DNA from: Candidatus Poribacteria bacterium
GTDB lineage: Bacteria; Poribacteria; WGA-4E; PCPOR2b
Length of the DNA: 64,000 bases
Assembly: GCA_965218095.1 (NCBI GenBank)
Contig: OZ244587.1
Location: 1,248,001-1,312,000, forward strand
Reading direction: 5' to 3'
In this document: piece after piece, positions 7,971-29,116 of the stretch
Layout: each line of letters begins with the position of its first letter
Numbering within the stretch: the first letter of the stretch is position 1
Notes under the pieces: model-generated
The model's input: only the letters and a program-made list of their open reading frames with translations
The model's database searches: none
What the model was told of the DNA's origin: nothing
Position numbers and translations under genes: made by a program

Positions 7971-10067
7971 CTATTTGATGATGAGCATCTTCCGCGTAGC
8001 AGAATAGTCCCCGGCAGACAGATGATAGAAATACACGCCGCTTGCCATCTGCTCACCGAACTCGTTACGACCATCCCAGTAAATCGCTTTCGACCGACTT
8101 TCGTAGAACGCCGCCATCCGATGCCCAACTTCAAGCGTACGAACAATCCGTCCACTCTGGTCATAGATGGTCAGCGTTACAAAAGCATCCTCTGCCAACC
8201 GATACGGAATCCACGTCTCTGGGTTGAATGGATTCGGGTAGTTTGGCAGGAGTACCGTCTCTTTAGGAGCCAGCGTTGCCAGAAGTCGCTCCAAGAAAAG
8301 AACGCCCCGCTGCGACGTTGCATCCGTCAAGTTTAGTGTTTGCGTTTGAGCCAACCACTGCCCCACGTCTGTTGCCGTCAGCATCGTCAGTGCCCGTGGA
8401 TTTGAGGACGGCGCGGCTGCCACATTCCCAAACGCCCCCGCTACCAACACCAAATCCTGGATGTTCACAATCCCATCGCCGTTTACGTCCGCCACCAGAT
8501 CTAGACCCTCATCCCCGAGATCTGACGCCACCAACACCAAATCCAAGATATTTACGACTCCATCGCTGTTCACATCGGGATCAACGACAGTAACTAACGG
8601 GCTTTGTCCGATCAATTTCAAGGTTCTATCCGAACGTGACGCGGAGCTAACGATGAAGGTAGCAATGCGAGCCGCGGAGGTAGTTGCTCCCGAATTACCG
8701 CCGCCACTGCCATAAGTAACAGTGATTGTATCACCGGGCATCAGGGTCTGAATATCGACTTGAATCTTATGCTTGGTGAACGTTACATCACCAAGCATTC
8801 CGGTTGAGGTAACGGTCGTGTATCCCGGTAGGCCTTGAATCCCCTGTGGCGGTGTCCAACCTGACGCAACGTGGACCGTAATCGCCCCTCCACGCATCCT
8901 GCCTTCGGCGGTATAGGTAATAACCATTTCGGTGCCATCGCTATGTGCAGCGACAGAAGCCGGCGAAACAGAAGCCGCCCCAGATCCGTCTGGGGTGTCA
9001 GGCGGCGCCTCAAACGCCAGATGATTCGACAAAAACTCCAGCGATTTTTCGGCGATGAATGTGTGTCCATCGTTATGCTCCTCGTATTCGTGATTGATCC
9101 CGAGATTAGTCATAGCGCGATCCAGCGCTCTCCCCTGGCGAAGGAATGCAGTTTCGTCCTTAGTACCATGGACGAGCTTAATTCCATTCAACTTCACCGG
9201 CAGATCGAGCGCCCGATCCAATTCATGGATGATGTCATTCTCAATAATGCGCTCCCAGACTTCATCCACGCGCCGAAACCAGAGGCCGTCCACTTCATAC
9301 GGCATATCCAAATAGAAGGGCGGCTTGTCAGGGTTGGGGGCGACCGCCGCCAGATACGCGAGGCCGTTTCGTGCCGGCAGGGGCAATTTATCGAAGAGCT
9401 CCCAAGCCTGGTCTTCAGGCAATATCTCCAAACCGAGCGAGACGATAGCGCCCACAACCTCTACGAAATTCTCAACCCAATAATCACTGAAATTGTAAGT
9501 ACCTGCCTGAGCGACGACCACACTGAATACATCGGGATATTTCAGGGCAAGGTGCATCGAACCGTATCCCCCCATCGAAAAGCCGGTAATCCCTCGACTG
9601 TCCCGGTGGGGGATTGTCCGATAATTGGCGTCGATAAAATTGACCACATCCCTCACAATGTACGTTTCATAATCTCCGATCGTTGGAGAACTGATATATT
9701 GACTGCCGTCAAACCTGTTCGAGCCATCAACGAAAACGGCAATCATTTCCCCAATTTCCTCATTTTGGATCATCCGGTCCATCGCTGATTTGACTTTGTT
9801 CGTCAGGCTCTTCGCGTTTCCGCCGAATCCATGAAGCACATAGATTACGGGATATCGCTTTTGGCTGAACTCATAGCTTGGCGGCAGATAAATCCCTGTC
9901 GATTTGGCTCCCGAATCGCCGATGAGATTGTCCTTCAATGCATCCCAGGTGCGCTGCCACCAAACCAGCTTGCTCCCCTGCGCCAGGGCAGCAGGCTGCG
10001 AGGCCAGAGTGATTAGCAACCAGAGCAGAATGTAAAACGGTGGATTTTTGAGCGGAGTTTTGAACAT
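7971..10067 (-). CDS. Secreted esterase (alpha/beta hydrolase) with dockerin-like and FlgD/CTD C-terminal domains
   Basis: Signal peptide; YVLHG and GFSMGG nucleophile motif; DVNSDGVVNILDLVLVA x2 (dockerin/EF-hand); PNYPNPFNPETWIPY...YWDGRN C-terminal domain. Confidence 0.85.
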   Translation of the reverse strand: MFKTPLKNPPFYILLWLLITLASQPAALAQGSKLVWWQRTWDALKDNLIGDSGAKSTGIYLPPSYEFSQKRYPVIYVLHGFGGNAKSLTNKVKSAMDRMIQNEEIGEMIAVFVDGSNRFDGSQYISSPTIGDYETYIVRDVVNFIDANYRTIPHRDSRGITGFSMGGYGSMHLALKYPDVFSVVVAQAGTYNFSDYWVENFVEVVGAIVSLGLEILPEDQAWELFDKLPLPARNGLAYLAAVAPNPDKPPFYLDMPYEVDGLWFRRVDEVWERIIENDIIHELDRALDLPVKLNGIKLVHGTKDETAFLRQGRALDRAMTNLGINHEYEEHNDGHTFIAEKSLEFLSNHLAFEAPPDTPDGSGAASVSPASVAAHSDGTEMVITYTAEGRMRGGAITVHVASGWTPPQGIQGLPGYTTVTSTGMLGDVTFTKHKIQVDIQTLMPGDTITVTYGSGGGNSGATTSAARIATFIVSSASRSDRTLKLIGQSPLVTVVDPDVNSDGVVNILDLVLVASDLGDEGLDLVADVNGDGIVNIQDLVLVAGAFGNVAAAPSSNPRALTMLTATDVGQWLAQTQTLNLTDATSQRGVLFLERLLATLAPKETVLLPNYPNPFNPETWIPYRLAEDAFVTLTIYDQSGRIVRTLEVGHRMAAFYESRSKAIYWDGRNEFGEQMASGVYFYHLSAGDYSATRKMLIIK

Positions 10068-10289
10068 GATTTGTTAGCTTCCTGGTGTAAGAGATACACA
10101 ACTTCTTGGGATGGTTCTGAACCGGTTAATTTCACACTTGCCAATTTGTGTATATTTCGTATTGCGTAGAACATAAAAGAAGTCGTTCTTCTTACGTTTT
10201 ACTTGATTCAAGTTCCAATCTAACTTGACTTTGTATGAGATTAAAAGAGGTAATCGGCAGATCCACTGGTGGCTCCGGTCTCCGACCGA

Positions 10290-10570
10290 GAGTCTTTGAC
10301 CTGTCTTCAACTCGATTGCCTTCTGCCCCGGGATATCCTCGTGGCGCGTGTTGAGCAGGCACTCCCGCTCGTGGTCTGTCCGGTAGCGCCGTTGGCTGCC
10401 GGGGACGACCATAAGGCGGGCATCGTTTATCAGCGTCAAGTGCTATTTGAGCCGGGTCATGGGCCGGTTCAGGATCTCAAGTTCAACCTCTTCTGTGCTG
10501 TCCCGTTCATTTTTGCCGAAATCCCGGTGCCACCCAAAGCCGTAATCGGCATTGTAGGGATTGTTGATAG
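10290..10570 (-). pseudogene. Phytanoyl-CoA dioxygenase family remnant
   Basis: Reads GFGWHRDFG...MTRLK*HLTLINDARLMVVPGSQRR with an in-frame TAG at 10443-10445; no start or proper end. Confidence 0.6.
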
Positions 10571-10617
10571 AGCAAATATATTTGCTCTCGGAAAAAGTCT
10601 CGTCATTTCCTCTGCTG

Positions 10618-11394
10618 TTAGGCATCATGAGTCTCAAACAGGCAGCGGACCGCTTCGCTGACACGGGCAAAGGCTTCGACGCTGAGAGCACTCGGAGAGA
10701 AAGAATTGGCCATATAGGGATCATCACGGCGGCGCCAAAAACTCGTGACGGCTGGCCGGTCGTCCACACTGCGATTGAGCGTGGCGCCGTGCCAAAGGTG
10801 GCTATTGAAGACGATGACCGTGCCGGCAGAACCGAGCAATTTAATTTCCCGTGGGTGCGGGGCATTCAGATCATCTATCGCATCTTTTGGGTGTTTGCCA
10901 CTGAGATGACTACCGGGAACCACACGCGTCGCGCCATTATCTTCAGTGAAATCCGTTAGAAGCCATATCGAGTTACACACACAATACGCTCCCGGTTTGG
11001 TGGGTGGCCCACTCTTGAAAGCATCATACGGATAGTCAACATGAAATGCCTGGTGACCACACCCCGGCGGATTCGGCCGCGAATGGATGCCTAAAGATAT
11101 GAAATCTTCCCTTAGCACATGAGCGATTGCGGCAAGCACGCGTGGGTGCGTCAAGCAAATATCAAAATCGGGGGCTTTGTTTTGCATGTTTCCACACTCC
11201 GATGGTCCTCCCTCTTCACCTGTCTTTTCGAGGGCAAACAAATTCTCTATCGCGGTACGCATCTGGGCGATCTGCTCGGAGGAGAGAATACCAGGCAGTG
11301 GTAGAAAACCGTCTCTATCCAACTTGAGTTTCTCCTCCTCGGAGAGGGTATTTTCTCTAACGCCAAGCGCATAAAGCGCTTCTTGACATGTCAT
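10618..11394 (-). CDS. Phytanoyl-CoA dioxygenase family (PhyH-like Fe(II)/2OG oxygenase)
   Basis: FHVD, LTDFTEDNGATRVVPGSH and LWHG motifs. Confidence 0.9.
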   Translation of the reverse strand: MTCQEALYALGVRENTLSEEEKLKLDRDGFLPLPGILSSEQIAQMRTAIENLFALEKTGEEGGPSECGNMQNKAPDFDICLTHPRVLAAIAHVLREDFISLGIHSRPNPPGCGHQAFHVDYPYDAFKSGPPTKPGAYCVCNSIWLLTDFTEDNGATRVVPGSHLSGKHPKDAIDDLNAPHPREIKLLGSAGTVIVFNSHLWHGATLNRSVDDRPAVTSFWRRRDDPYMANSFSPSALSVEAFARVSEAVRCLFETHDA

Positions 11395-14162: not shown

Positions 14163-15617
14163 ATGATGTGTTTAAGACAAAGGTCTGGTCAATCAAGAGT
14201 TAGCGAAGGGATCTTCATTTGGACCCTCGTGATTATTTTCGGAGGCGGAGGAATCGTCCCCGAAAGCTCGGCAGAACACAACTGGACGGAACAAATCGCA
14301 GTCTTCAAACCGATGGTTGTGAACGTGGAGACCTCTTCGGAGGTTGTGTTTGAAACGGAATCGAAGGGAACAAATTTCGCCACCGGCTTCATCGTTGACG
14401 CAGAACGTGGCCTCATCGTAACCAACCGACATGTGACTGGCAGTAGCCCGTCTTATGTCAAGATCAATTTCTATAACGGCAGCTTTACAGAAGCGAAGAT
14501 GCTTTACTATGATCCGACACACGATTTCGGTTTTTACAAAATCGATCCGGACGAAGTTCTGTTTGAACTTCAGGCGGTGCAACTCGGTTCGTGGCGCGAC
14601 CTGGCCTTGGGAGATGAACTGCTCCTGATCGGCAACAATGAAAAAGAGGAGTATTCAATCAAATTTGGCACAGTCGCCAATCTCAACGTGAACAAGGGAG
14701 ATCGGCATTCGAGCTACATCCACACGACGTTTGATCGCACGGGCGGCTCAAGCGGCAGCCCTGTCTGGAACACAAAGGGAGAGGTCATCGCCATCCATGC
14801 GCGCGGCACCGACACTTCCAGTTTTGAGTTACCTATCAATTATGTGATCGATGCCTTGAAGCAGATCCAGAGCGGCACGCCAATTCAACGCGGAGAAATT
14901 GGCGTAGATCTGGAGTTGATTTCAATCGGAGAGGCAATCAAGCACTTCGGGCTTCCCGAAGCCTCGCGTGCGGAGATTGGCCCCTCGGAAGCAGGGACGC
15001 CGAAAGTGATCCAGATCGAATCCATCATCCCCAAAACGACAGGCGGAGCGAACCTTCGCGCTTCCGATATTATCTATCGGATTAACGAGAAGCTGATCCG
15101 CGACGATCTATACACCTTCGATGCAATACTCAATGAAAGCGTGGAACGAAGTGTTGCGCTAGACATCTATCGCAACGGGAAGGGGTTAACCGTTGAAGTG
15201 CCGACAGAAGATCTTGAGATGAAAAAAGTTCGTCGGTTTGTCCGCTTTGCGGGTTCAATCTTTCACGATATAACCCCCAATCTCAGACAGATGCTTTACT
15301 TTGAGGCAGATGGGGTTTACCTGCCGCATGCGGTTGCTGGGAGTAGCTTTTCCCGTGTCGGCATGCGCGAGCATAATGGAAATTCAAAAGTGGTGATTTT
15401 GGAGATCAACGGGCGAGCGATTAAGAATCTGGACGATTTTATCGGTGCCTGTACCGAGATTTCAGATGGACAGCATACATACGTAGTCATCCGCGACTTC
15501 AACCTGTTTGACAGCTCACCAACGCCCAGAAGTTTGACAATCAATCTGAAGTTTGGTCCGCCCGAAGTGTTCGAGTGGAATGAGGGCAAGCTTGACTGGG
15601 AAAAGGTGGAAGAATGA
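14163..15617 (+). CDS. Trypsin-like S1 serine protease with PDZ domains (Nma111/DEG7-like)
   Basis: Catalytic triad motifs TNRHV, DPTHDFGF and GGSSGSPV; N-terminal hydrophobic segment; PDZ-like C-terminal half. Confidence 0.85.
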   Translation: MMCLRQRSGQSRVSEGIFIWTLVIIFGGGGIVPESSAEHNWTEQIAVFKPMVVNVETSSEVVFETESKGTNFATGFIVDAERGLIVTNRHVTGSSPSYVKINFYNGSFTEAKMLYYDPTHDFGFYKIDPDEVLFELQAVQLGSWRDLALGDELLLIGNNEKEEYSIKFGTVANLNVNKGDRHSSYIHTTFDRTGGSSGSPVWNTKGEVIAIHARGTDTSSFELPINYVIDALKQIQSGTPIQRGEIGVDLELISIGEAIKHFGLPEASRAEIGPSEAGTPKVIQIESIIPKTTGGANLRASDIIYRINEKLIRDDLYTFDAILNESVERSVALDIYRNGKGLTVEVPTEDLEMKKVRRFVRFAGSIFHDITPNLRQMLYFEADGVYLPHAVAGSSFSRVGMREHNGNSKVVILEINGRAIKNLDDFIGACTEISDGQHTYVVIRDFNLFDSSPTPRSLTINLKFGPPEVFEWNEGKLDWEKVEE

Positions 15618-15676
15618 AACGTGATGAGTCATAAGTGAATCCTTGACTCCTTGATTCTCAATTCATAGGAGGGAAT

Positions 15677-17056
15677 TTGATACCTTACAAACGAGTTTAT
15701 CCTATCGTAACATTTCTCTTTGTGTTTTGCCTAATCGGTAGCGCAATTGCAGATGTTGAAATCAATATTTTTCTATTGAATACGGAGTTCTTTTTCGATA
15801 ATGAAGAACCCCACGGCAAAGTGGTTGGCGATTCGGCGCCCATCCCAACACCGGAAGAATATGAAGCCAAAGCCATTGCCGAATTAATCGACGGACATCA
15901 AGCAAATCTCGTTGGGCTCGTCGAAGTGGAAAATCGAGACGTTGTCGAAAAGGTCAGATCTTACCTCACAAGCCCTGACGAATGGAAAATCGCCTTTAAT
16001 GAAGGGAGAGATACTTTTACTGGCCAAGATGTCACCATCCTCACGAAATTTGGGATCGTGCCGGGAAGTGTGACGAACTTCCCAGAGGAGCGTGGAATAT
16101 TCTTCGTGGGTGACAAAGAACAAGATGTAAACCCCTCAAAGATTCTCGGCGTCGAATTGAAAATCGCCGATGATCCCTTCTATATCCTGATTACCCACCT
16201 CATATCTCACCGCAACCCCGCAAATGACGCCAAGCGACTCGCTCAAGCGACCGTCGTACGTCGTCAAGCCGCCAAGGCAATGATCAACGACAAAAACGCC
16301 ATCGTCATGGGCAACATGAACGACACGCCGGGGACGCCGGTCATCAATCGGCTGCGGGGGTTCGATGACATCTGGGGCGACCTTCTTCAGACCGCCAATG
16401 TGGTCGAGGCGAATGAGCGGTATACCTACGTCTACGAAGGTCAGAAAAACCTGCTCGATCACATTCTCATCAGTCCAAGTCTGTGGAACGAGTTTCGCAA
16501 TGTTGAAGAAGGGAAGCGGTGTGAAATTATCGATGTCGGTAAGCTATCAGATCGCCGGGCAATTATCGCGCGATTGCGGATTGTCCAGCCCGTCGTCGCG
16601 ATTGAAACAGACAAAGGCACAATCGAAATCGAGCTCTACCCAAGCGTTGCGCCGAAAACTGTTGCCAATTTTCTCAGGCTTGTCGAAGATAAATTTTACG
16701 ATGGGCTGACCTTCCACCGTTATGTCGAGAACTTTGTGATTCAGGGCGGCGATCCGAGCGGTGATGGCACCGGTGGGCCAGGTTGGACAATCGAGGGCGA
16801 GTTTCAAAATCCGAAGCTCCGCGCAAAGATGCCTCGACATGCAAAAGGGATCGTTGCTATGGCACGGACCGGCGATCCGGACTCCGCAGGAAGCCAGTTT
16901 TACATCTGTCTGGATAAAAACAGATCTCGTTATCTTAGTCTGAACGGGCAATATACGACCTTCGGGAAAGTCATTGCTGGAATCGAGGTCGTCGATCAGC
17001 TTCAGGCGGGGGATGTGATGAAGATGGTACGGCTGCAGGGGGAGAACGGAGAGTAG
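15677..17056 (+). CDS. Endonuclease/exonuclease/phosphatase domain fused to cyclophilin-type peptidyl-prolyl isomerase
   Basis: EEP motifs GLVEVEN, GNMND and LLDHILIS; cyclophilin motifs APKTVANF, FHRYVENFVIQGGDP and AMART...SAGSQFYI. Confidence 0.85.
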   Translation: MIPYKRVYPIVTFLFVFCLIGSAIADVEINIFLLNTEFFFDNEEPHGKVVGDSAPIPTPEEYEAKAIAELIDGHQANLVGLVEVENRDVVEKVRSYLTSPDEWKIAFNEGRDTFTGQDVTILTKFGIVPGSVTNFPEERGIFFVGDKEQDVNPSKILGVELKIADDPFYILITHLISHRNPANDAKRLAQATVVRRQAAKAMINDKNAIVMGNMNDTPGTPVINRLRGFDDIWGDLLQTANVVEANERYTYVYEGQKNLLDHILISPSLWNEFRNVEEGKRCEIIDVGKLSDRRAIIARLRIVQPVVAIETDKGTIEIELYPSVAPKTVANFLRLVEDKFYDGLTFHRYVENFVIQGGDPSGDGTGGPGWTIEGEFQNPKLRAKMPRHAKGIVAMARTGDPDSAGSQFYICLDKNRSRYLSLNGQYTTFGKVIAGIEVVDQLQAGDVMKMVRLQGENGE

Positions 17057-22386: not shown

Positions 22387-23222
22387 GGTTCTGTTGACAT
22401 TTCAAGCGAGCCATATAAGAGTGGCGACAAAGCTGAGAAATCCAAAATAACGGACAACTAGCTTCTCAAACCGAGAGAAGATACGACGATACCATTTTAT
22501 CTTGTTGATGAAACATTCAACCCGATGTCTCTCTTTGTATAAGTGTTTGTCATACGTTCTTTGGTCAACACGATGACTTTTTGGCGGTATCACCGCAATC
22601 GCTCCATTCGCCTCAATAACCGCGATAAAAGCGTCCGAATCGTACTCCTTGTCTCCAATCACATATTCACTGTTATATCCGATTATCAACCCTTCCGCCT
22701 CAGTTATGTCATGTCTCTGACCGGGGGTCAGATGAATTCTTAGCGGATTGCCTAGTCCGTCAACGGTGATGTGATTTTTTGTACTGAAACCGCCCCGAGA
22801 CCGACCTAATGCTTGGTTTTCAGTGCCACCCTTTTTTTTAAGGCGCCAGCTTTTTAAGGCGCCCGCCGCAGACGGGTGAGCGCAGCAGATGGTACTGTCC
22901 ACAATAAGCGACTCGATATCGGGGTCAGAGGCGAAGTGGTAGTGGATCTGTGTGAAGATACCTTTGTCGCACCATCGAGCAAACCGCTTGTAGCGGGTGT
23001 TCCATTTGCCATAGGTGTCTGGTAGAAGTCTCCATTGAGCGCCGCTACGAGTCACCCACAGAACTGCTTCGACGAAGCGGCGTGTAGCAGCTTCGTCGCC
23101 AACATAGATGGTGGGACAGCTTAGAAGAAACCGGTATATCTTATTCCATTGTTCATCAGGTAAGGTTATTGGCGTCATTCTTCTATTATGCCACAACCTT
23201 ATACTCAAATGTCAACAGAACC
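22387..23222 (-). mobile_element. IS5-family insertion sequence, copy 1
   Basis: 16-bp TIRs GGTTCTGTTGACATTT / AAATGTCAACAGAACC with TA on both flanks; transposase ORF 22402-23208. Confidence 0.93.
22402..23208 (-). CDS. IS5-family transposase
   Basis: EAVLWVTRSGAQWRLLP..YGKW, IVDST, GRSRGGFSTK, GDKEYD and YKERHRVECFINKIK motifs. Confidence 0.9.
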   Translation of the reverse strand: MSIRLWHNRRMTPITLPDEQWNKIYRFLLSCPTIYVGDEAATRRFVEAVLWVTRSGAQWRLLPDTYGKWNTRYKRFARWCDKGIFTQIHYHFASDPDIESLIVDSTICCAHPSAAGALKSWRLKKKGGTENQALGRSRGGFSTKNHITVDGLGNPLRIHLTPGQRHDITEAEGLIIGYNSEYVIGDKEYDSDAFIAVIEANGAIAVIPPKSHRVDQRTYDKHLYKERHRVECFINKIKWYRRIFSRFEKLVVRYFGFLSFVATLIWLA

Positions 23223-23298: not shown

Positions 23299-23793
23299 AT
23301 GTTATATTTGAATTCAGTTGGGAATGCTACCGCCAGCAAAACGGAGAAAAGATACGCGATCTGTCACGAAAAGGTTCCCCTTATGCAAAACATTACGGAA
23401 TTGGCGCCGTCAAAGGAACTTCTGGCACAGTGGCAATCAGAAAAGATTGACTGGGAAGACTTTTGGCAGCGATTCATTGACGAAATGCGAGCGGAGTATC
23501 GCAAGGACGACAAAAGCCGACTCAAGAGATTGGCAAAATCTGGAAACGAGAGAGCAGGACAAAGCGCGCGAGAACCGATTGGGGATACACAACTGACTAA
23601 GGTAGATCGACAGCGAATGGAGGAAATCGCTGCGAAATGTGAATTTTTTTCGTCCGGACAGCCACGCAGCCGGCGGCGAACCTGCCAAGTCTGTAAGCAT
23701 TTAGATCAACAGGCCTATATGTGTCCTATGACCCGGCAGGTCGTCATCCATTACGAGTGGACGACGCTGCTCCGGTTCGGTCCTCAAGCCTGA
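23299..23793 (+). CDS. DUF488/YeaO-like protein with a Cys-rich C-terminus (possibly internally deleted)
   Basis: ELAPSKELL..W....IDWEDFWQRFIDEM is typical of DUF488; C-terminal CQVC...C. Confidence 0.55.
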   Translation: MLYLNSVGNATASKTEKRYAICHEKVPLMQNITELAPSKELLAQWQSEKIDWEDFWQRFIDEMRAEYRKDDKSRLKRLAKSGNERAGQSAREPIGDTQLTKVDRQRMEEIAAKCEFFSSGQPRSRRRTCQVCKHLDQQAYMCPMTRQVVIHYEWTTLLRFGPQA

Positions 23794-24739: not shown

Positions 24740-24768
24740 TTGACAAACTTTCCCAAATCGCATATCAT
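24740..24768 (+). promoter_or_regulatory. sigma70-type promoter of the queD-tgt locus
   Basis: TTGACA (24740-24745), 17-bp spacer, TATCAT (24763-24768). Confidence 0.6.
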
Positions 24769-24787
24769 AAAACTATCCTGAAGTGCG

Positions 24788-25189
24788 TTGAAAGAAAGGA
24801 ATTGCCCCTTGTATACAACCGTCATCGTCCCATTTGAATTCTATGCAAGTCACAGCCTGTCTGTTCGGGAAAAGCCGCATAATCACTATTGGACACTGAA
24901 GCTGTTTGTGAAAGGCATCCCGAAAAATGGCATGGTTATTGACATTCTCAAGCTGCGACAACTCACAGATCCGTATGTCGAAAAGCTTGTAGATACTTAC
25001 CTGAATGACAATCCCGCCCTGACCGAAGAACAGGCGGCTTGCCCAACTTGTGAAATGCTTGCTGCCTATTTCTATGAGCATGTCTCCCAAGCCCTGGAGG
25101 GGTTCGATGCTGAACTCAAAGCCGTCGAGGTTGAATTACGTGAACTTGAAGGGAAGGAATGGGGTGCGGCACGACTCGAAGCGGATTAA
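24788..25189 (+). CDS. queD: QueD/PTPS-family 6-carboxytetrahydropterin synthase-like protein
   Basis: FYASHSL...HNHYW (Zn-binding His), GMVID, YLND and PTCE motifs; the true start may be the TTG near 24809. Confidence 0.75.
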   Translation: MKERNCPLYTTVIVPFEFYASHSLSVREKPHNHYWTLKLFVKGIPKNGMVIDILKLRQLTDPYVEKLVDTYLNDNPALTEEQAACPTCEMLAAYFYEHVSQALEGFDAELKAVEVELRELEGKEWGAARLEAD

Positions 25190-25190
25190 A

Positions 25191-27069
25191 ATGACTGACG
25201 CTCCGACTTATCAAACCAAAATCCGAAGGAAGGGTGGCAGGATCGGTGAGTTTCACCTAAAGCGTAACAGTAAAGGGCTCCACCCGTTATCAACACCCAT
25301 TTTGTACCCTGTCCTCTCATTCATGACCGGTACAAGTCCACGCGGCGGTGGGATTTGGAAATACCTGTTGAGAGATTTCATGAAGCACAACGTGCCGATC
25401 CTCTCGCAAGTGCTGCATTTTCTGGACTTCAATCTCACCGGCAAGCACATTAAACGCTGGCGAAATAAGTCGATGCGTGAATGGTACCGAGGGGTAAATG
25501 GATTGTATCATGCACCACTTGTCCTGGATTCCGGCGGGTTCAAATTGCTTTACAATGCCGGACTCGATCTCTCAGAGTTTGGGATTCATAGAGAGACAGA
25601 GGCGGATGATATTCTTGCGTTTCAACTCGATGTCGGAGGGGACATCATCGCATCGCTGGATTATCCACTTCCTCCCGGACTTGCCCGCCCCGAAGCGGAA
25701 GCCCGCATGAATCGAAGCCACCAGAACGCATTTCGGGTTGCAGAGCGACTCGCAGAGATGGACAAACCACCTTACCTGTATATCTGCTGTCATGGACAAT
25801 CGAGAGCAGATATTCAAAATTATGTCGATCAGATTTTTGATCGGTTAAAGGGTGTACTTCCCTCTTTCGGTCTTGCAGTCGGTTCACTGGTGCCGCTGCA
25901 GGGCGGCAATGATTCGGAGGTGCTCTTACGAATTTGCGGTGTCCTCGACGCAATTTCTGAATCAGAGCGAGATCTAACGCCTATCCATGCTTTTGGGATT
26001 TCTGGTAATCTGACGCCTATATTAGCCTACCTGGGAGTCGATAGTTTTGACAGTACAAGCTACATCCAATCGGCGCGGAATCTTGGCTATTCCGAGCCCG
26101 AGACGCAAAGAAAATTAAAGGTCATGGAATTGGATACGATGGATTGTACTTGTCGTGTCTGCCGGGAAACTTCCCTTGAAGAAATGCAGCAGGCATTTAT
26201 GGAAGCCGAAAGCTATCGGCGAACATCAACAGGGAAGTACAAAAGCGAATATTACGCCGCAATTGCGCTGCATAACTTCGAGATGGAAGCCGAAACGCTG
26301 AGAGATATGAAGGACGCGATTACAGGCGATGACACGCTTGAGGCGTTAGTTCGCCATGCCTCGACGGCTCGCGGTGTTCGAGAGGCAGTAGACTAGCTGG
26401 CTGAAAATGACGATGAATTCGCAGTTCAAATGTCAAGAACGGCTGTGGTTGTTCCCAAACGTTTGACAAGTCGGCGTACTTATCAAACAAACTCCTATCA
26501 GTTAGAACTCTTCACCTGCGCAGCCCCACCTCAAACCGATCTGTTCCTTCACGAAGAACAACCGACGATTTCGCTGAATTATACCCCCGACTCATTTTCC
26601 ATTCCGCCAGACTATCAGCCGCCCAACGGGAAGCGGATCCTTTTAACGATTCCCTGCGCAGGGAAGAAGCCGTATTCCCTTTCGCGTACCCACTCGATTG
26701 TCGACGCCAAACTTCAAACCGCCTTCGGAGAAAATCAGCGAGCGATTCACAAGATCACCTTTTCGGGCTTATACGGGCCCGTTCCTGAAGAATTTGAATC
26801 AGAGGAGGCTGTGATACGCTATGAATTCCAATTGTCGCCCCGACATACCGACCAGATACAGCTTTGCGCGGATCGGTTCAATACCTACCTACCTCGACGA
26901 ACAGGGGGAACACTATGAACTCATCGTCGGATATGCCACAAGTCGTGCCTATCGCGAAGTCTTTGAGCGCATCCAAAAGCATCGACCAGATTTTATCCTG
27001 CTCCCCACAAAACCGAAGCAGAAACGACTCTCCGAGTTCTTCCGACATATCCACCTTGATGAATTAATA
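25191..27069 (+). pseudogene. tRNA/DNA-guanine transglycosylase (TGT family) fused to an ArcS/DUF5591-like domain; interrupted by a TAG, a 4-bp duplication and IS insertions
   Basis: TGT motifs LDSGGF, SLDYP, CHG, AVGSL, HAFG, DSFDSTS and Zn site CTCRVC...HN. In-frame TAG at 26394-26396. ArcS-type motif PCAGKKPYSLSRTH, then SGLYGPVPEE. TACC x3 frameshift at 26882-26893. The 3' end continues at 28187-28244 and 29071-29087. Confidence 0.8.
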
Positions 27070-28178
27070 GAGGGGTGTGCATAGTAGTTCATTGGAAAAC
27101 AGCCGCCATATGAGAGATATTGCGAGCAGGTAACTTCCATATGGCATTGGCAATCATAGCCACTTGCACTGATAACACCCCGATAGCTAAACAACAGCGT
27201 ACATTGAAAAACCCCTTGACCGGTAACTGCTTCTGTTGAGGAGTGGTGCCTATCACTTTAGCAATCAAGTCAAACAACGGTTCAACCGAACTGCGACGTT
27301 TGCTTAAACAGAGACGCTGCTTGGGTTGGTTGATAAATCGATGATACGCCTTGGCAAACCGTCCCTTTGTCCATCTAAGTGCCGGGGTAATCAAAGCGAC
27401 TTGTGCCTTCGCCCAACGACGGATACGGTCTGCTTGGGTATAGGCATCATCGGCAGTGAGTGTCTGCGGTGAAAGTTGTGTCAGAATCTCAGACGCTTTA
27501 GCATCTATCGCCCAACTTTCGGAGACCGACGCACGGTGCACAGTTATCAGTGTTGGGAACGCACCTTGTGTGCAGATAATGTGAAGTCCGTAGCCATAGA
27601 CCCAGCCATGATAACCACTCTTGCTCCACGTGGCATCGGTGTCGAGGTTGCGTAGATGTTTAGGTACTTTTCCTGCTTTGCGGTCAGTTTGATGCCAGAC
27701 GGGTCCTCGTGCCTTAAATAAACTTTTGTCGGCTACCAGATGAGCCAAGTTGAATTGTTGGGACAAGTCAGTGGCATACTGACCGATAAACAATACAAAT
27801 GCCTCTATCACTTCATATAATGCCTTATAGCGACGTGCAATCGTGGTTCGATGAGGGGGCTGTTGCCACCCCAGCATTTGTAACACTTCTGGGTGATTGA
27901 TTAGCCACCGCCATTGCGTTTTGAAGCCATAGATGCCGTGAAACTGCATCAACATGAAGAAAATGATAAACGAGGTGGTTGAATATGTCAATGGTTTTGC
28001 GTGTGTGACACCTGGTTTGTCAATACGGTGTTGCATAAACTGCTCAAAGAGTTGCATAATAAGAGTGACATAATCAGCCAACATTGGTCTTTGTACCATA
28101 TTGGGGCTCCTTTTGCTATGATAACAATAGGAAACCCTTTTGGCTTGATTATGTCAACTATATTTATGCACACCCCTC
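27070..28178 (-). mobile_element. DDE insertion sequence (IS982/IS5-like) inserted in the 3' end of the TGT-ArcS gene
   Basis: 14-bp TIRs GAGGGGTGTGCATA (27070-27083) / TATGCACACCCCTC (28165-28178); 8-bp target duplication AATTAATA at 27062-27069 and 28179-28186. Confidence 0.92.
27089..28099 (-). CDS. DDE transposase (DDE_Tnp_1-like)
   Basis: LVADKS, DTDATW..GWVYGYGLH, ADDAY and RRSSVEPLF motifs; lies inside the TIRs. Confidence 0.88.
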   Translation of the reverse strand: MVQRPMLADYVTLIMQLFEQFMQHRIDKPGVTHAKPLTYSTTSFIIFFMLMQFHGIYGFKTQWRWLINHPEVLQMLGWQQPPHRTTIARRYKALYEVIEAFVLFIGQYATDLSQQFNLAHLVADKSLFKARGPVWHQTDRKAGKVPKHLRNLDTDATWSKSGYHGWVYGYGLHIICTQGAFPTLITVHRASVSESWAIDAKASEILTQLSPQTLTADDAYTQADRIRRWAKAQVALITPALRWTKGRFAKAYHRFINQPKQRLCLSKRRSSVEPLFDLIAKVIGTTPQQKQLPVKGFFNVRCCLAIGVLSVQVAMIANAIWKLPARNISHMAAVFQ

Positions 28179-28244
28179 AATTAATAGAAGTTTTATTGAG
28201 TGTTTTAGAGAAGAAAGCTGTTCAGGAGGGCTACAATGGTGCTA

Positions 28245-29068
28245 GGTTCTGTTGACATTTCAAGGGAGCCATATAAGAGTGGGGACAAAGCTGAGAAATC
28301 CAAAATAACGGACAGCTAGCTTCTCAAACCGAGAGAAGATACGACGATACCATTTTATCTTGTTGATGAAACATTTAACCCGATGTCTCTCTTTGTATAA
28401 GTGTTTGTCATACGTTCTTTGGCCAACACGATGACTTTTGGGCGGTATCACCGCAATCGCTCCATTCGCCTTGATAACCGCGATAAAAGCGTCCGAATCG
28501 TACCCCTTGTCTCCAATCACATATTCACTGTTATATCCGATTATCAACCCTTCCGCCTCAGTTATGTCATGTCTCTGACCGGGGGTCAGATGAATTCTTA
28601 GGGGATTGCCTAGTCCGTCAACTGTGATGTGATTTTTTGTACTGAAACCGCCCCGAGACCGACCTAATGCTTGGTTTTCAGTGCCACCCTTTTTTTTAAG
28701 GCGCCAGCTTTTTAAGGCGCCCGCCGCACACGGGTGAGCGCGGCAGATGGTACTGTCCACAATAAGCGACTCGATATCGGGGTCAGAGGCGAAGTGGGGG
28801 TGCATCTGTGTGAAGATACCTTTGTCGCACCATCGAGCAAACCGCTTGTAGCGGGTGTTCCATTTACCATAGGTGTCTGGTAGAAGTCTCCATTGAGCCC
28901 CACTACGAGTCACCCACAGGACGGCTTCGACGAAGCGGCGTGAGATGGTGGAGATGGTGGGACAGCTAAGAAGAAACCGGTATATCTTATTCCATTGTTC
29001 ATCAGGTAAGGTTATTGGCGTCATTCTTCTATTATGCCACAACCTTATACTCAAATGTCAACAGAACC
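28245..29068 (-). mobile_element. IS5-family insertion sequence, copy 2
   Basis: Same TIRs as copy 1 (28245-28260 and 29053-29068), TA flanks, near-identical sequence. Confidence 0.93.
28260..29054 (-). CDS. IS5-family transposase (4-aa in-frame deletion relative to copy 1)
   Basis: Near-identical protein to 22402-23208. Confidence 0.88.
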   Translation of the reverse strand: MSIRLWHNRRMTPITLPDEQWNKIYRFLLSCPTISTISRRFVEAVLWVTRSGAQWRLLPDTYGKWNTRYKRFARWCDKGIFTQMHPHFASDPDIESLIVDSTICRAHPCAAGALKSWRLKKKGGTENQALGRSRGGFSTKNHITVDGLGNPLRIHLTPGQRHDITEAEGLIIGYNSEYVIGDKGYDSDAFIAVIKANGAIAVIPPKSHRVGQRTYDKHLYKERHRVKCFINKIKWYRRIFSRFEKLAVRYFGFLSFVPTLIWLP

Positions 29069-29116
29069 TAATTGCATTCAAGAATAAATGCCTGAAAGGT
29101 TAGAGGTAAGTTCAGA

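Follow-up and report, generated by a model that had tools for sequence, protein, structure and literature searches.

A decayed fusion of a transglycosylase and an archaeosine synthase core in Poribacteria, and its intact family of probable DNA 7-deazaguanine modification enzymes

A 64-kb stretch of the genome of a sponge symbiont, a Candidatus Poribacteria bacterium (contig OZ244587.1, positions 1,248,001 to 1,312,000), hereafter the window, carries a broken gene that joins a tRNA-guanine transglycosylase (TGT) domain to the DUF5591 core, or C1 domain, of the archaeosine synthase ArcS. This copy is a pseudogene and makes no fused enzyme today. Its intact relatives in bacteria and haloarchaea are probably Dpd-like enzymes that modify DNA with 7-deazaguanines of the deoxyarchaeosine (dG+) type, the window copy being a decayed paralog. 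Gene context and a missing PUA domain point to DNA as the probable target of the family and to RNA as an unlikely one.

To map the lesions, the nearest intact homolog, P0002 (637 amino acids (aa), 81% identical), was aligned to the window DNA using tblastn. The locus, which includes an insertion sequence (IS) and several open reading frames (ORF), is laid out as follows, in positions of the window.

24740-24768, plus strand: sigma-70-like promoter match, TTGACA-17-TATCAT, 11/12 consensus positions, consensus match only
24788-25189, plus strand: QueD-like gene of the PTPS fold, frame still open (Pfam PTPS PF01242, 1.5e-15)
25191-26396, plus strand, premature TAG included: TGT domain of the broken gene, similar to archaeal TGT (ArcTGT), 401 aa to 26393 (Pfam TGT, 1e-17; NCBIfam TgtA, 84.6 bits)
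26397-26891, plus strand: in-frame continuation past the TAG, linker and first two-thirds of the DUF5591/ArcS C1 domain (PF17884, 4.6e-10; NCBIfam ArcS, 1e-9; 81% identity to P0002)
26883-26894, plus strand: frameshift site, ACCT three times in tandem, where the homolog reading frame moves +1 (tblastn segments overlap at TYL, frames +1/+2)
26887-27071, plus strand: final third of the C-terminal domain, read in the frame after the shift, YLDEQGEHYELIVGYATS...DELIE (81% identity to P0002 residues 561-622)
27072-28178, minus strand: IS element in the 3' end of the gene, ~1107 bp (Pfam DDE_Tnp_1; DDE transposase ORF 27089-28099, minus strand)
28181-28255, plus strand: displaced final 24 codons and original stop, LIEVLLSVLEKKAVQEGYNGARFC*, matching the tails of intact homologs
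28260-29054, minus strand: second IS transposase (IS4/5 type, DUF4096 and DDE by Pfam), outside the gene, after its original stop

The TGT part (25191-26393) displays the motifs LDSGGF, LDYPLPP, CCHGQ, GVDSFDS, and CTCRVC...ALHN, and the frame read through the TAG contains PCAGKKPYSLSRTH...SGLYGPVPEE. A previous sequence-only reading of this DNA had recognized both, i.e. a ~400-aa TGT part with its catalytic and zinc motifs and an in-frame continuation behind one TAG, and the Pfam and NCBIfam matches listed above bear it out. It had also correctly placed the ATG (25191) 1 nt after the TAA of the upstream gene, which ends at 25189. The same reading proposed that one fused polypeptide of ~650 aa could both insert preQ0 and amidinate it. 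This architecture is real in the family, but the window locus cannot produce it, as a nonsense codon, a frameshift, and an inserted IS interrupt the gene; the +1 frameshift (26883-26894) and the IS (27072-28178) had been missed, as had an intact paralog elsewhere in the genome. The nonsense lesion, TAG at 26394-26396, lies opposite a conserved Trp, W403 of P0002 (AVNWLIEN vs AVD*LAEN). At the frameshift, the alignment to P0002 switches to the +1 frame at ...ADRFNTYL. The IS has terminal inverted repeats and is flanked by a 10-nt direct repeat, AATTAATAGA, at 27062-27071 and 28179-28188. It severs the final 24 codons, and the frame right after the second AATTAATAGA copy reads a homolog-like tail.

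These lesions were checked in contigs of public runs. Six runs (three studies) contain the stretch, and four of them were compared over 26200-27300; run X1 may be the source sample, and the remaining two studies are separate. The TAG is unchanged in contigs of runs X1, X2, and X4, and contigs of all four runs have no insertion or deletion at the frameshift site. Over 26200-27071, the X2 and X4 contigs differ from the window at only two positions, neither of which is at the TAG or is an indel. The nonsense and frameshift lesions recur unaltered in contigs of all three studies and are therefore fixed in this population. X2 and X4 (two studies) show an IS-free site, in which 27071 joins directly to the sequence from 28189 onward (30 letters), and the IS insertion is therefore younger or polymorphic. 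A truncated 418-aa ORF (P0021; 5 member sequences, 2 contigs) is called on a second assembly too. Long-read single-contig metagenome-assembled genomes (MAG) can carry indel errors, and the host genome is a 6.35-Mb single-contig MAG (93.9% complete). The stop codon and the frameshift might on this ground be artifacts of assembly or sequencing in a gene that is really intact. This is contradicted by the unaltered TAG and the absence of indels over 26200-27071 in short-read-derived contigs of three studies, which leaves it scarcely credible. The window locus is a fixed pseudogene and should not carry annotation as a working QueD/TGT operon. As a separate observation, summed contig depth over 27051-27300 is ~3-26 within the gene and climbs to 290-980 within the IS in all four runs, indicating that this IS family is very abundant in those metagenomes.

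The intact paralog in the same genome, outside the window, encodes a 635-aa protein, P0028 (G000:C1:287709-289613), which is 70% identical to the window copy. A word-index protein search returned 465 proteins at E<=1e-3. PF01702 and PF17884 occur together in one chain of 570-663 aa in 119 of the best 120 of these, and the remaining hit is the truncated ORF of the window itself. The sequence-only reading had named homologs that are always two separate genes as an outcome that would refute it, and this is not what the family shows. An exhaustive search of representatives found 667 clusters at E<=1e-3, of which 104 reach E<=1e-30, with many full-length proteins at 33-47% identity. The family is carried by Poribacteria, cyanobacteria, Chloroflexota, one Symbiobacteriaceae MAG, and haloarchaea, its cultured carriers including Thermogemmatispora carboxidivorans PM5, Planktothrix paucivesiculata PCC 9631, Microseira wollei NIES-4236, and Halorussus halobius, and databases label the fused protein merely 'tRNA-guanine transglycosylase'. 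In the literature on DUF5591, ArcS/archaeosine in bacteria, DpdA/Dpd, and 7-deazaguanine defense we found no description of it; the supplements of PMC6884629 and PMC10516641 (ArcS similarity networks, Data S1) may list such proteins, and PMC6884629 has phage ArcS clustering together with 'bacterial and archaeal homologs'. As far as the literature found shows, the family would be a previously undescribed enzyme joining a transglycosylase domain to an archaeosine synthase core. The Symbiobacteriaceae MAG has two convergent members (L116; 684 aa, 8935-10989, plus strand, and 756 aa, 14762-17032, minus strand), and between these lie genes for a 998-aa STAND/AAA NTPase and a protein of 259 aa; QueC is encoded immediately upstream.

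Across 22 diverse members (P0028 numbering), the TGT domain has invariant D113 (DSGG), D157, H266, D287 (DxFDS), C321, C324, and H361, and a nearly invariant C319. In terms of roles, D113 is the general acid/base, D157 the substrate Asp, and D287 the nucleophile, and C319, C321, C324, and H361 are the zinc ligands. The C-terminal domain shows invariant P493, Y494, G528, P531, E535, R561, and R586, with C488, K492, and S497 near-invariant. These conserved columns align with the motifs of ArcTGT (1iq8) and with PCxxxKPYxxSxxH of AF0587, and both domains look catalytically competent in the family. A family profile matched ArcTGT 1iq8 (5e-33), AF0587 2q07 (DUF5591; 5.7e-13), bacterial TGT (~1e-10), and DpdA 7ui4 (7e-4). 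The family motif G-S-L-V-P-L aligns with G-G-V-V-P-L of ArcTGT, a segment linked in a review to specificity for 7-cyano-7-deazaguanine (preQ0) (PMC5699537). An AlphaFold2 model of P0028 (pLDDT 89.5, pTM 0.87) consists of two domains and a disordered linker (419-454), with nothing after C1, and its top-ranked fold match in Foldseek is ArcTGT. Pfam matched no PUA domain in the window parts. The intact enzymes are typically 610-660 aa long. As predicted from sequence, the architecture of the family is a complete archaeal-type TGT catalytic domain plus the ArcS C1/DUF5591 core, without PUA.

Judged by its sequence, the fused protein is neither housekeeping Tgt nor canonical ArcTGT, ArcS, or DpdA. 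NCBIfam scores (window part/P0028, against the curated cut-off) are 84.6/79.5 bits vs 350 for TgtA (TIGR00432), 37.6 (window C-part)/90.9 bits vs 440 for ArcS (NF040592), 19.6/25 bits vs 200 for DpdA (NF041059), and 21.2/24.5 bits vs 306.75 for Tgt (TIGR00430); the PADLOC DpdA model PDLC02807 gives 23.4 bits. A phylogeny of 88 TGT domains, computed by an IQ-TREE quick search with SH-aLRT as the sole support measure and with the genome's own bacterial TGT as root, gives the fused family a clade of its own, with 78 rows (SH-aLRT 82), apart from ArcTGT, ArcS, and bacterial TGT, in a topology whose deep order is made unsafe by long branches. The host genome has a separate canonical Tgt (C1:4888672-4889718, 550.9 bits on PF01702). 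The divergence from housekeeping Tgt that had been noted from the letters alone is genuine. All four family-carrying haloarchaeal genomes searched have canonical ArcTGT (358-631 bits, one split), and three of the four have canonical ArcS (821-856 bits).

Gene neighborhoods outside Poribacteria were compared in 24 loci (cyanobacteria, Chloroflexota, one Symbiobacteriaceae MAG, and haloarchaea) by clustering neighboring ORF with BLAST. Nine loci encode a 1285-1463-aa DEAD/Helicase_C protein, whose representative matches PADLOC DpdJ (1.6e-53) and which is the immediate next gene in seven of these nine. A ~160-aa PLD-like protein (PADLOC DpdK, 6.8e-11) is encoded in 6/24 loci, and a GmrSD_N (PADLOC NsnA, 4.7e-61) and HEPN pair in nine, all cyanobacterial. 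Taken together, 17 of the 24 loci have the DpdJ-like helicase or the GmrSD/HEPN pair. Loci L113 and L114 are examples of a three-gene cassette of TGT-ArcS, DpdJ-like, and DpdK-like genes. Genes of preQ0 synthesis often accompany these partners. QueC occurs in five loci, a QueE-like radical SAM protein with PTPS in two, and the YhhQ-type Vut_1 family in three. Two loci, both Chloroflexota cassettes, have a nucleoside 2-deoxyribosyltransferase, and further neighbors include NurA with HerA, a STAND NTPase, and a second TGT, 419 aa long, accompanied by an HATPase protein. A plasmid island of Haladaptatus sp. YSMS36 (L122, NZ_CP119784.1 37912-63792) has the same kind of gene set. Its record annotation lists a DEAD/DEAH helicase, a PLD-like protein, DUF6884, a TGT, an ATP-binding protein, a 1493-aa AAA protein, a TGT-DUF5591 protein, and a third TGT-like protein, the three TGT-superfamily genes being 352, 654, and 673 aa long. 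No DpdB/DpdC-like annotation turned up among the neighbor clusters scanned, in which no DpdB/DpdC model search was made. Similarly, no RaSEA partner is conserved among the neighbors, where radical SAM proteins are QueE-like or KamA-like and no RaSEA model search was made. In cyanobacteria, Chloroflexota, and haloarchaea, these neighborhoods may be read as the marks of a Dpd-like DNA modification-restriction cassette, and the alternative of a Dpd-like DNA target, raised in the sequence-only reading, fits them.

The picture in Poribacteria is different in its partners. The 53 Poribacteria rows of the TGT-domain tree are monophyletic (SH-aLRT 99) and split into clade A (20 rows, support 100, including P0028), clade B (11 rows, support 100), and a third clade (16 rows), with a few rows left at the base. 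The window copy lies inside a 36-row clade (support 96) that holds A and B, without a firm position there, and is nearest to clade B by identity. Among related genomes the family is present in 25/41 (by genome family, 20/24 in f1, 4/5 in f3, 0/6 in f2, and 0/5 in f4). Clade A is directly downstream of a PF01555 DNA methylase in 13/19 loci, and in five loci the two genes are separated by one for a MutH-like nuclease (PADLOC REase_II, 3.9e-13); the own genome's intact copy P0028 has both beside it. In two f3 genomes, a GNAT acetyltransferase (Acetyltransf_1, 1.5e-11) is encoded a few bases downstream of the clade-A gene (L034:7546-8040, L036:7517-8011), and GNAT-TGT pairings are mentioned for BRC systems (PMC12839542). 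We considered the genes flanking clade B (aminotransferase, cyclophilin, KamA-like radical SAM, and xylose-isomerase-like) as partners and rejected them, as they look like plain synteny within one genus. The KamA/lysine-2,3-aminomutase-like radical SAM gene (L024:4553-5614 and its cluster) is three genes downstream of clade-B copies in 9/9 loci, which is probably plain synteny since all those loci come from one genus; it is perhaps still relevant, as ArcS uses lysine and a radical SAM partner.

The gene upstream of the pseudogene had been taken for queD. Its PTPS fold stands, a T-fold likeness to Escherichia coli QueD (4ntk), but it does not encode canonical QueD: it scores 35.3 bits with NCBIfam QueD (TIGR03367) vs a cut-off of 89.25. 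Compared with E. coli QueD and the genome's own bimodular PTPS, the protein keeps the three zinc histidines and a YLND motif, the Cys loop is deleted (5 residues vs E. coli QueD, ~14 columns vs canonical PTPS rows), and the Asp-His pair reads Val-Asp in the E. coli QueD register. We take the deleted loop to carry the catalytic Cys and the Asp-His pair to be catalytic. The start is probably TTG at 24809, giving the 126-aa form of homologs. The subfamily is narrow, all 57 sequence homologs being 58-98% identical over the aligned stretch, and the sole one with an organism name is from Poribacteria. Beside the 11 intact clade-B genes the PTPS-like ORF is intact in four cases, and in the other seven frameshifted, a remnant, or undetected. 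Lacking catalytic residues and often decayed, it therefore cannot be relied on as an enzyme of the preQ0 pathway, and the fused enzyme does not need it. It is best described as a predicted T-fold protein, specific to Poribacteria, in which the QueD catalytic residues are missing and which many intact orthologs of the fused gene do without. The promoter reported in front of it is there (24740-24768), though only as a consensus match, because the region has 8 promoter-like sites vs 5.3 +/- 2.6 in shuffled sequence. As had been stated, queC and queE are not in the window; the genome's QueC, QueE-like protein (85 bits, under the Bacillus-type cut-off), QueF, and bimodular PTPS are all encoded elsewhere, and preQ0 would be supplied by this queuosine pathway of its own.

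To our knowledge, dG+ in DNA has so far been shown only in viruses, where it is made by separate DpdA and ArcS2 or by Gat-QueC; cellular Dpd systems are known to make dPreQ0 and dADG, the deoxynucleosides of preQ0 and of 7-amido-7-deazaguanine, respectively. In the mechanism that we propose, the N-terminal domain of the fused enzyme would exchange guanine in DNA for preQ0 along the double-displacement route of TGT and DpdA (PMC10164549), with one conserved Asp as general acid/base, another as nucleophile, and the aid of the Cys3His zinc site. The C-terminal domain would then add an amine to the nitrile, as ArcS does, yielding dG+ or a preQ0-amine adduct. DpdA2 and ArcS2 of Vibrio phage nt-1, co-expressed in E. 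coli, produced low levels of dG+ in plasmid DNA (PMC10516641; Cui, Hutinet et al., NAR 2023). That archaeosine itself is the product, as the sequence-only reading had it, is uncertain: Thermococcus ArcS makes preQ0-lysine, and the radical SAM protein RaSEA is needed to reach archaeosine (G+); Methanocaldococcus ArcS reportedly works with ammonia, Gln, or Asn (PMC11298593). In cyanobacteria, Chloroflexota, and haloarchaea, the enzyme would be the marking half of compact Dpd-like restriction-modification/defense cassettes, its partners a DpdJ-like helicase and a DpdK-like PLD nuclease or a GmrSD/HEPN pair, accompanied by preQ0 supply genes. In Poribacteria, the gene would have been inherited vertically and duplicated into several clades, with clade A beside an ordinary DNA methylase and, in some loci, a restriction nuclease; there being no Dpd-type restriction partner, the enzyme would therefore act as an orphan DNA marker. 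In its most complete form, the proposal is tentative though quite possible: a single fused enzyme, without a DpdB-type ATPase, would write an archaeosine-type base (dG+ or a preQ0-amine adduct) into the cell's own chromosome as the marking module of a so far undescribed, minimal Dpd-like defense system (TGT-ArcS, DpdJ-like, and DpdK-like) across bacteria and haloarchaea, with Poribacteria retaining, in as many as three paralogous clades, an orphan mark of epigenetic or protective function.

A number of points weigh against DNA modification. The DNA target is deduced from gene neighborhood, and the neighbors were called by a simple ORF filter, each cluster being annotated from one representative. 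No DpdB-type ATPase is conserved beside the gene among the annotated neighbors, for which no DpdB model search was made, and Salmonella DpdA needs the DpdB ATPase (PMC10164549). By analogy with Thermococcus, ArcS chemistry may need RaSEA (PMC11298593). No phage relatives were found at 1e-5 by tblastn of P0028 against 50,697 phage records, and a scan of viral contigs with the family alignment gave 32 pattern matches, of which none was confirmed. DpdJ/DpdK-like clusters occur in none of the 53 Poribacteria loci of the tree; in the own genome (93.9% complete), the PADLOC DpdK model has 0 matches and the DpdJ model only generic helicases (<=37.5 bits). The methylase adjacency is limited to clade A and could be inherited synteny. 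Moreover, the TGT domain is nearest to a tRNA enzyme (ArcTGT, 5e-33 vs DpdA 7ui4, 7e-4), and the Poribacteria genes look vertically inherited, as those of a housekeeping RNA enzyme would.

At least in Poribacteria, the family might, as a bacterial counterpart, combine ArcTGT and ArcS in one chain that places preQ0 into tRNA or another RNA and turns it into a G+-like base, the window being a dead paralog. The likeness to ArcTGT holds for both profile and fold, the genes of Poribacteria form one clade, are located on chromosomes, and lack a nuclease or helicase partner of Dpd type, and ArcS acts even on preQ0 nucleoside 5'-phosphate, so that the C1 chemistry is independent of tRNA shape (PMC11298593). 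Such an enzyme would nevertheless have no PUA or C2/C3 tRNA-binding domain, a patchy distribution (25/41 related genomes, with 0/6 in f2 and 0/5 in f4), and one copy freely decaying in the host genome. Members also sit in restriction/defense cassettes of other phyla and on a haloarchaeal plasmid, and of the four haloarchaeal carriers searched, all possess ArcTGT already and three possess ArcS as well. We consider action on RNA unlikely. The acceptance of preQ0 nucleoside 5'-phosphate by ArcS (PMC11298593) and the nucleoside 2-deoxyribosyltransferase of two Chloroflexota cassettes would also suit an enzyme of a free base or nucleotide, e.g. in 7-deazapurine small-molecule metabolism. With a nucleophile Asp and a zinc site typical of polymer-acting TGT, and with helicases and nucleases rather than biosynthetic tailoring enzymes as partners, this is very improbable. 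For the window locus itself, a functional split form can be envisaged, in which the TGT-only product of 401 aa, possibly together with the PTPS-like protein, is a DpdA-like stand-alone preQ0 transglycosylase that has shed its ArcS part. A strong promoter match precedes the TGT and PTPS-like ORF, neither of which is interrupted, the truncated ORF of 418 aa recurs on the second assembly, and TGT-only proteins of 386-418 aa are among the family representatives. These short representatives may, however, be metagenome-contig fragments, 119 of the best 120 homologs are fused, and a gene with three independent lesions is what decay usually looks like, which makes a working split form improbable, if less so than an enzyme of free bases. 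If the preferred reading of DNA modification is true, a cellular single-chain TGT-ArcS enzyme with helicase/nuclease partners would be a new chemical self-mark in restriction-modification biology and a compact tool for site-specific deazaguanine labeling of DNA.

Around the pseudogene, none of the ten neighboring ORF is a defense gene; they are metabolic and proteolytic genes and IS transposases. IS4/5-type transposases at 22402-23208 and 28260-29054 (both minus strand, same protein cluster) bracket the region, and the element at 27072-28178 is a third IS, different from this pair. A 164-aa ORF (23299-23793, plus strand) matches DUF488 models only in its middle (residues 32-81), overlaps the end of the adjoining cytidylyltransferase-like gene, and may be a gene fragment. 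The own genome also encodes, outside the window, two further divergent archaeal-type TGT paralogs of 344 and 393 aa (TgtA, 57 and 72 bits).

G000:C1:3554616-3555377 (L153:1447-2478), minus strand: extra TGT paralog
G000:C1:678095-678865 (L155:1486-2664): extra TGT paralog

One of the two adjoins a HerA-like ATPase (anti-phage HerA model, 1.5e-38), and the other an AAA protein with weak BrxD/ORC matches. They recall the HerA/TGT 'BRC' systems of PMC12839542.

Among known systems, ArcTGT (1iq8) is the best profile and fold match of the fused family, with which it has in common the catalytic Asp, GxxVPL, DxFDS, and the zinc motif. The family differs in that the C1-C2-PUA tRNA-binding tail of ArcTGT is replaced by an ArcS-type C1 only, and in forming a separate clade. 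With ArcS/RaSEA of Euryarchaeota it shares the C1/DUF5591 domain and its PCX3KPYX2SX2H motif. Unlike ArcS, it is without PUA, keeps all TGT catalytic residues in its N-terminal domain, and coexists with true ArcS in 3/4 haloarchaeal genomes searched. Vibrio phage nt-1 DpdA2 and ArcS2 similarly combine a transglycosylase with a DUF5591-only ArcS core lacking PUA, whereas the family is one polypeptide, found in cellular carriers (bacteria and haloarchaea), and its TGT half is ArcTGT-like, not DpdA-like. Finally, the Dpd system of Salmonella Montevideo (DpdA-K) also relies on a TGT-superfamily enzyme with three conserved Asp (PMC10164549), and non-Poribacteria members of the family adjoin DpdJ-like helicases, DpdK-like PLD nucleases, and preQ0 genes. 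In contrast to Dpd, the fused-family cassette has only 3-4 genes and holds an ArcS core in place of DpdC, and a different final base is therefore expected.

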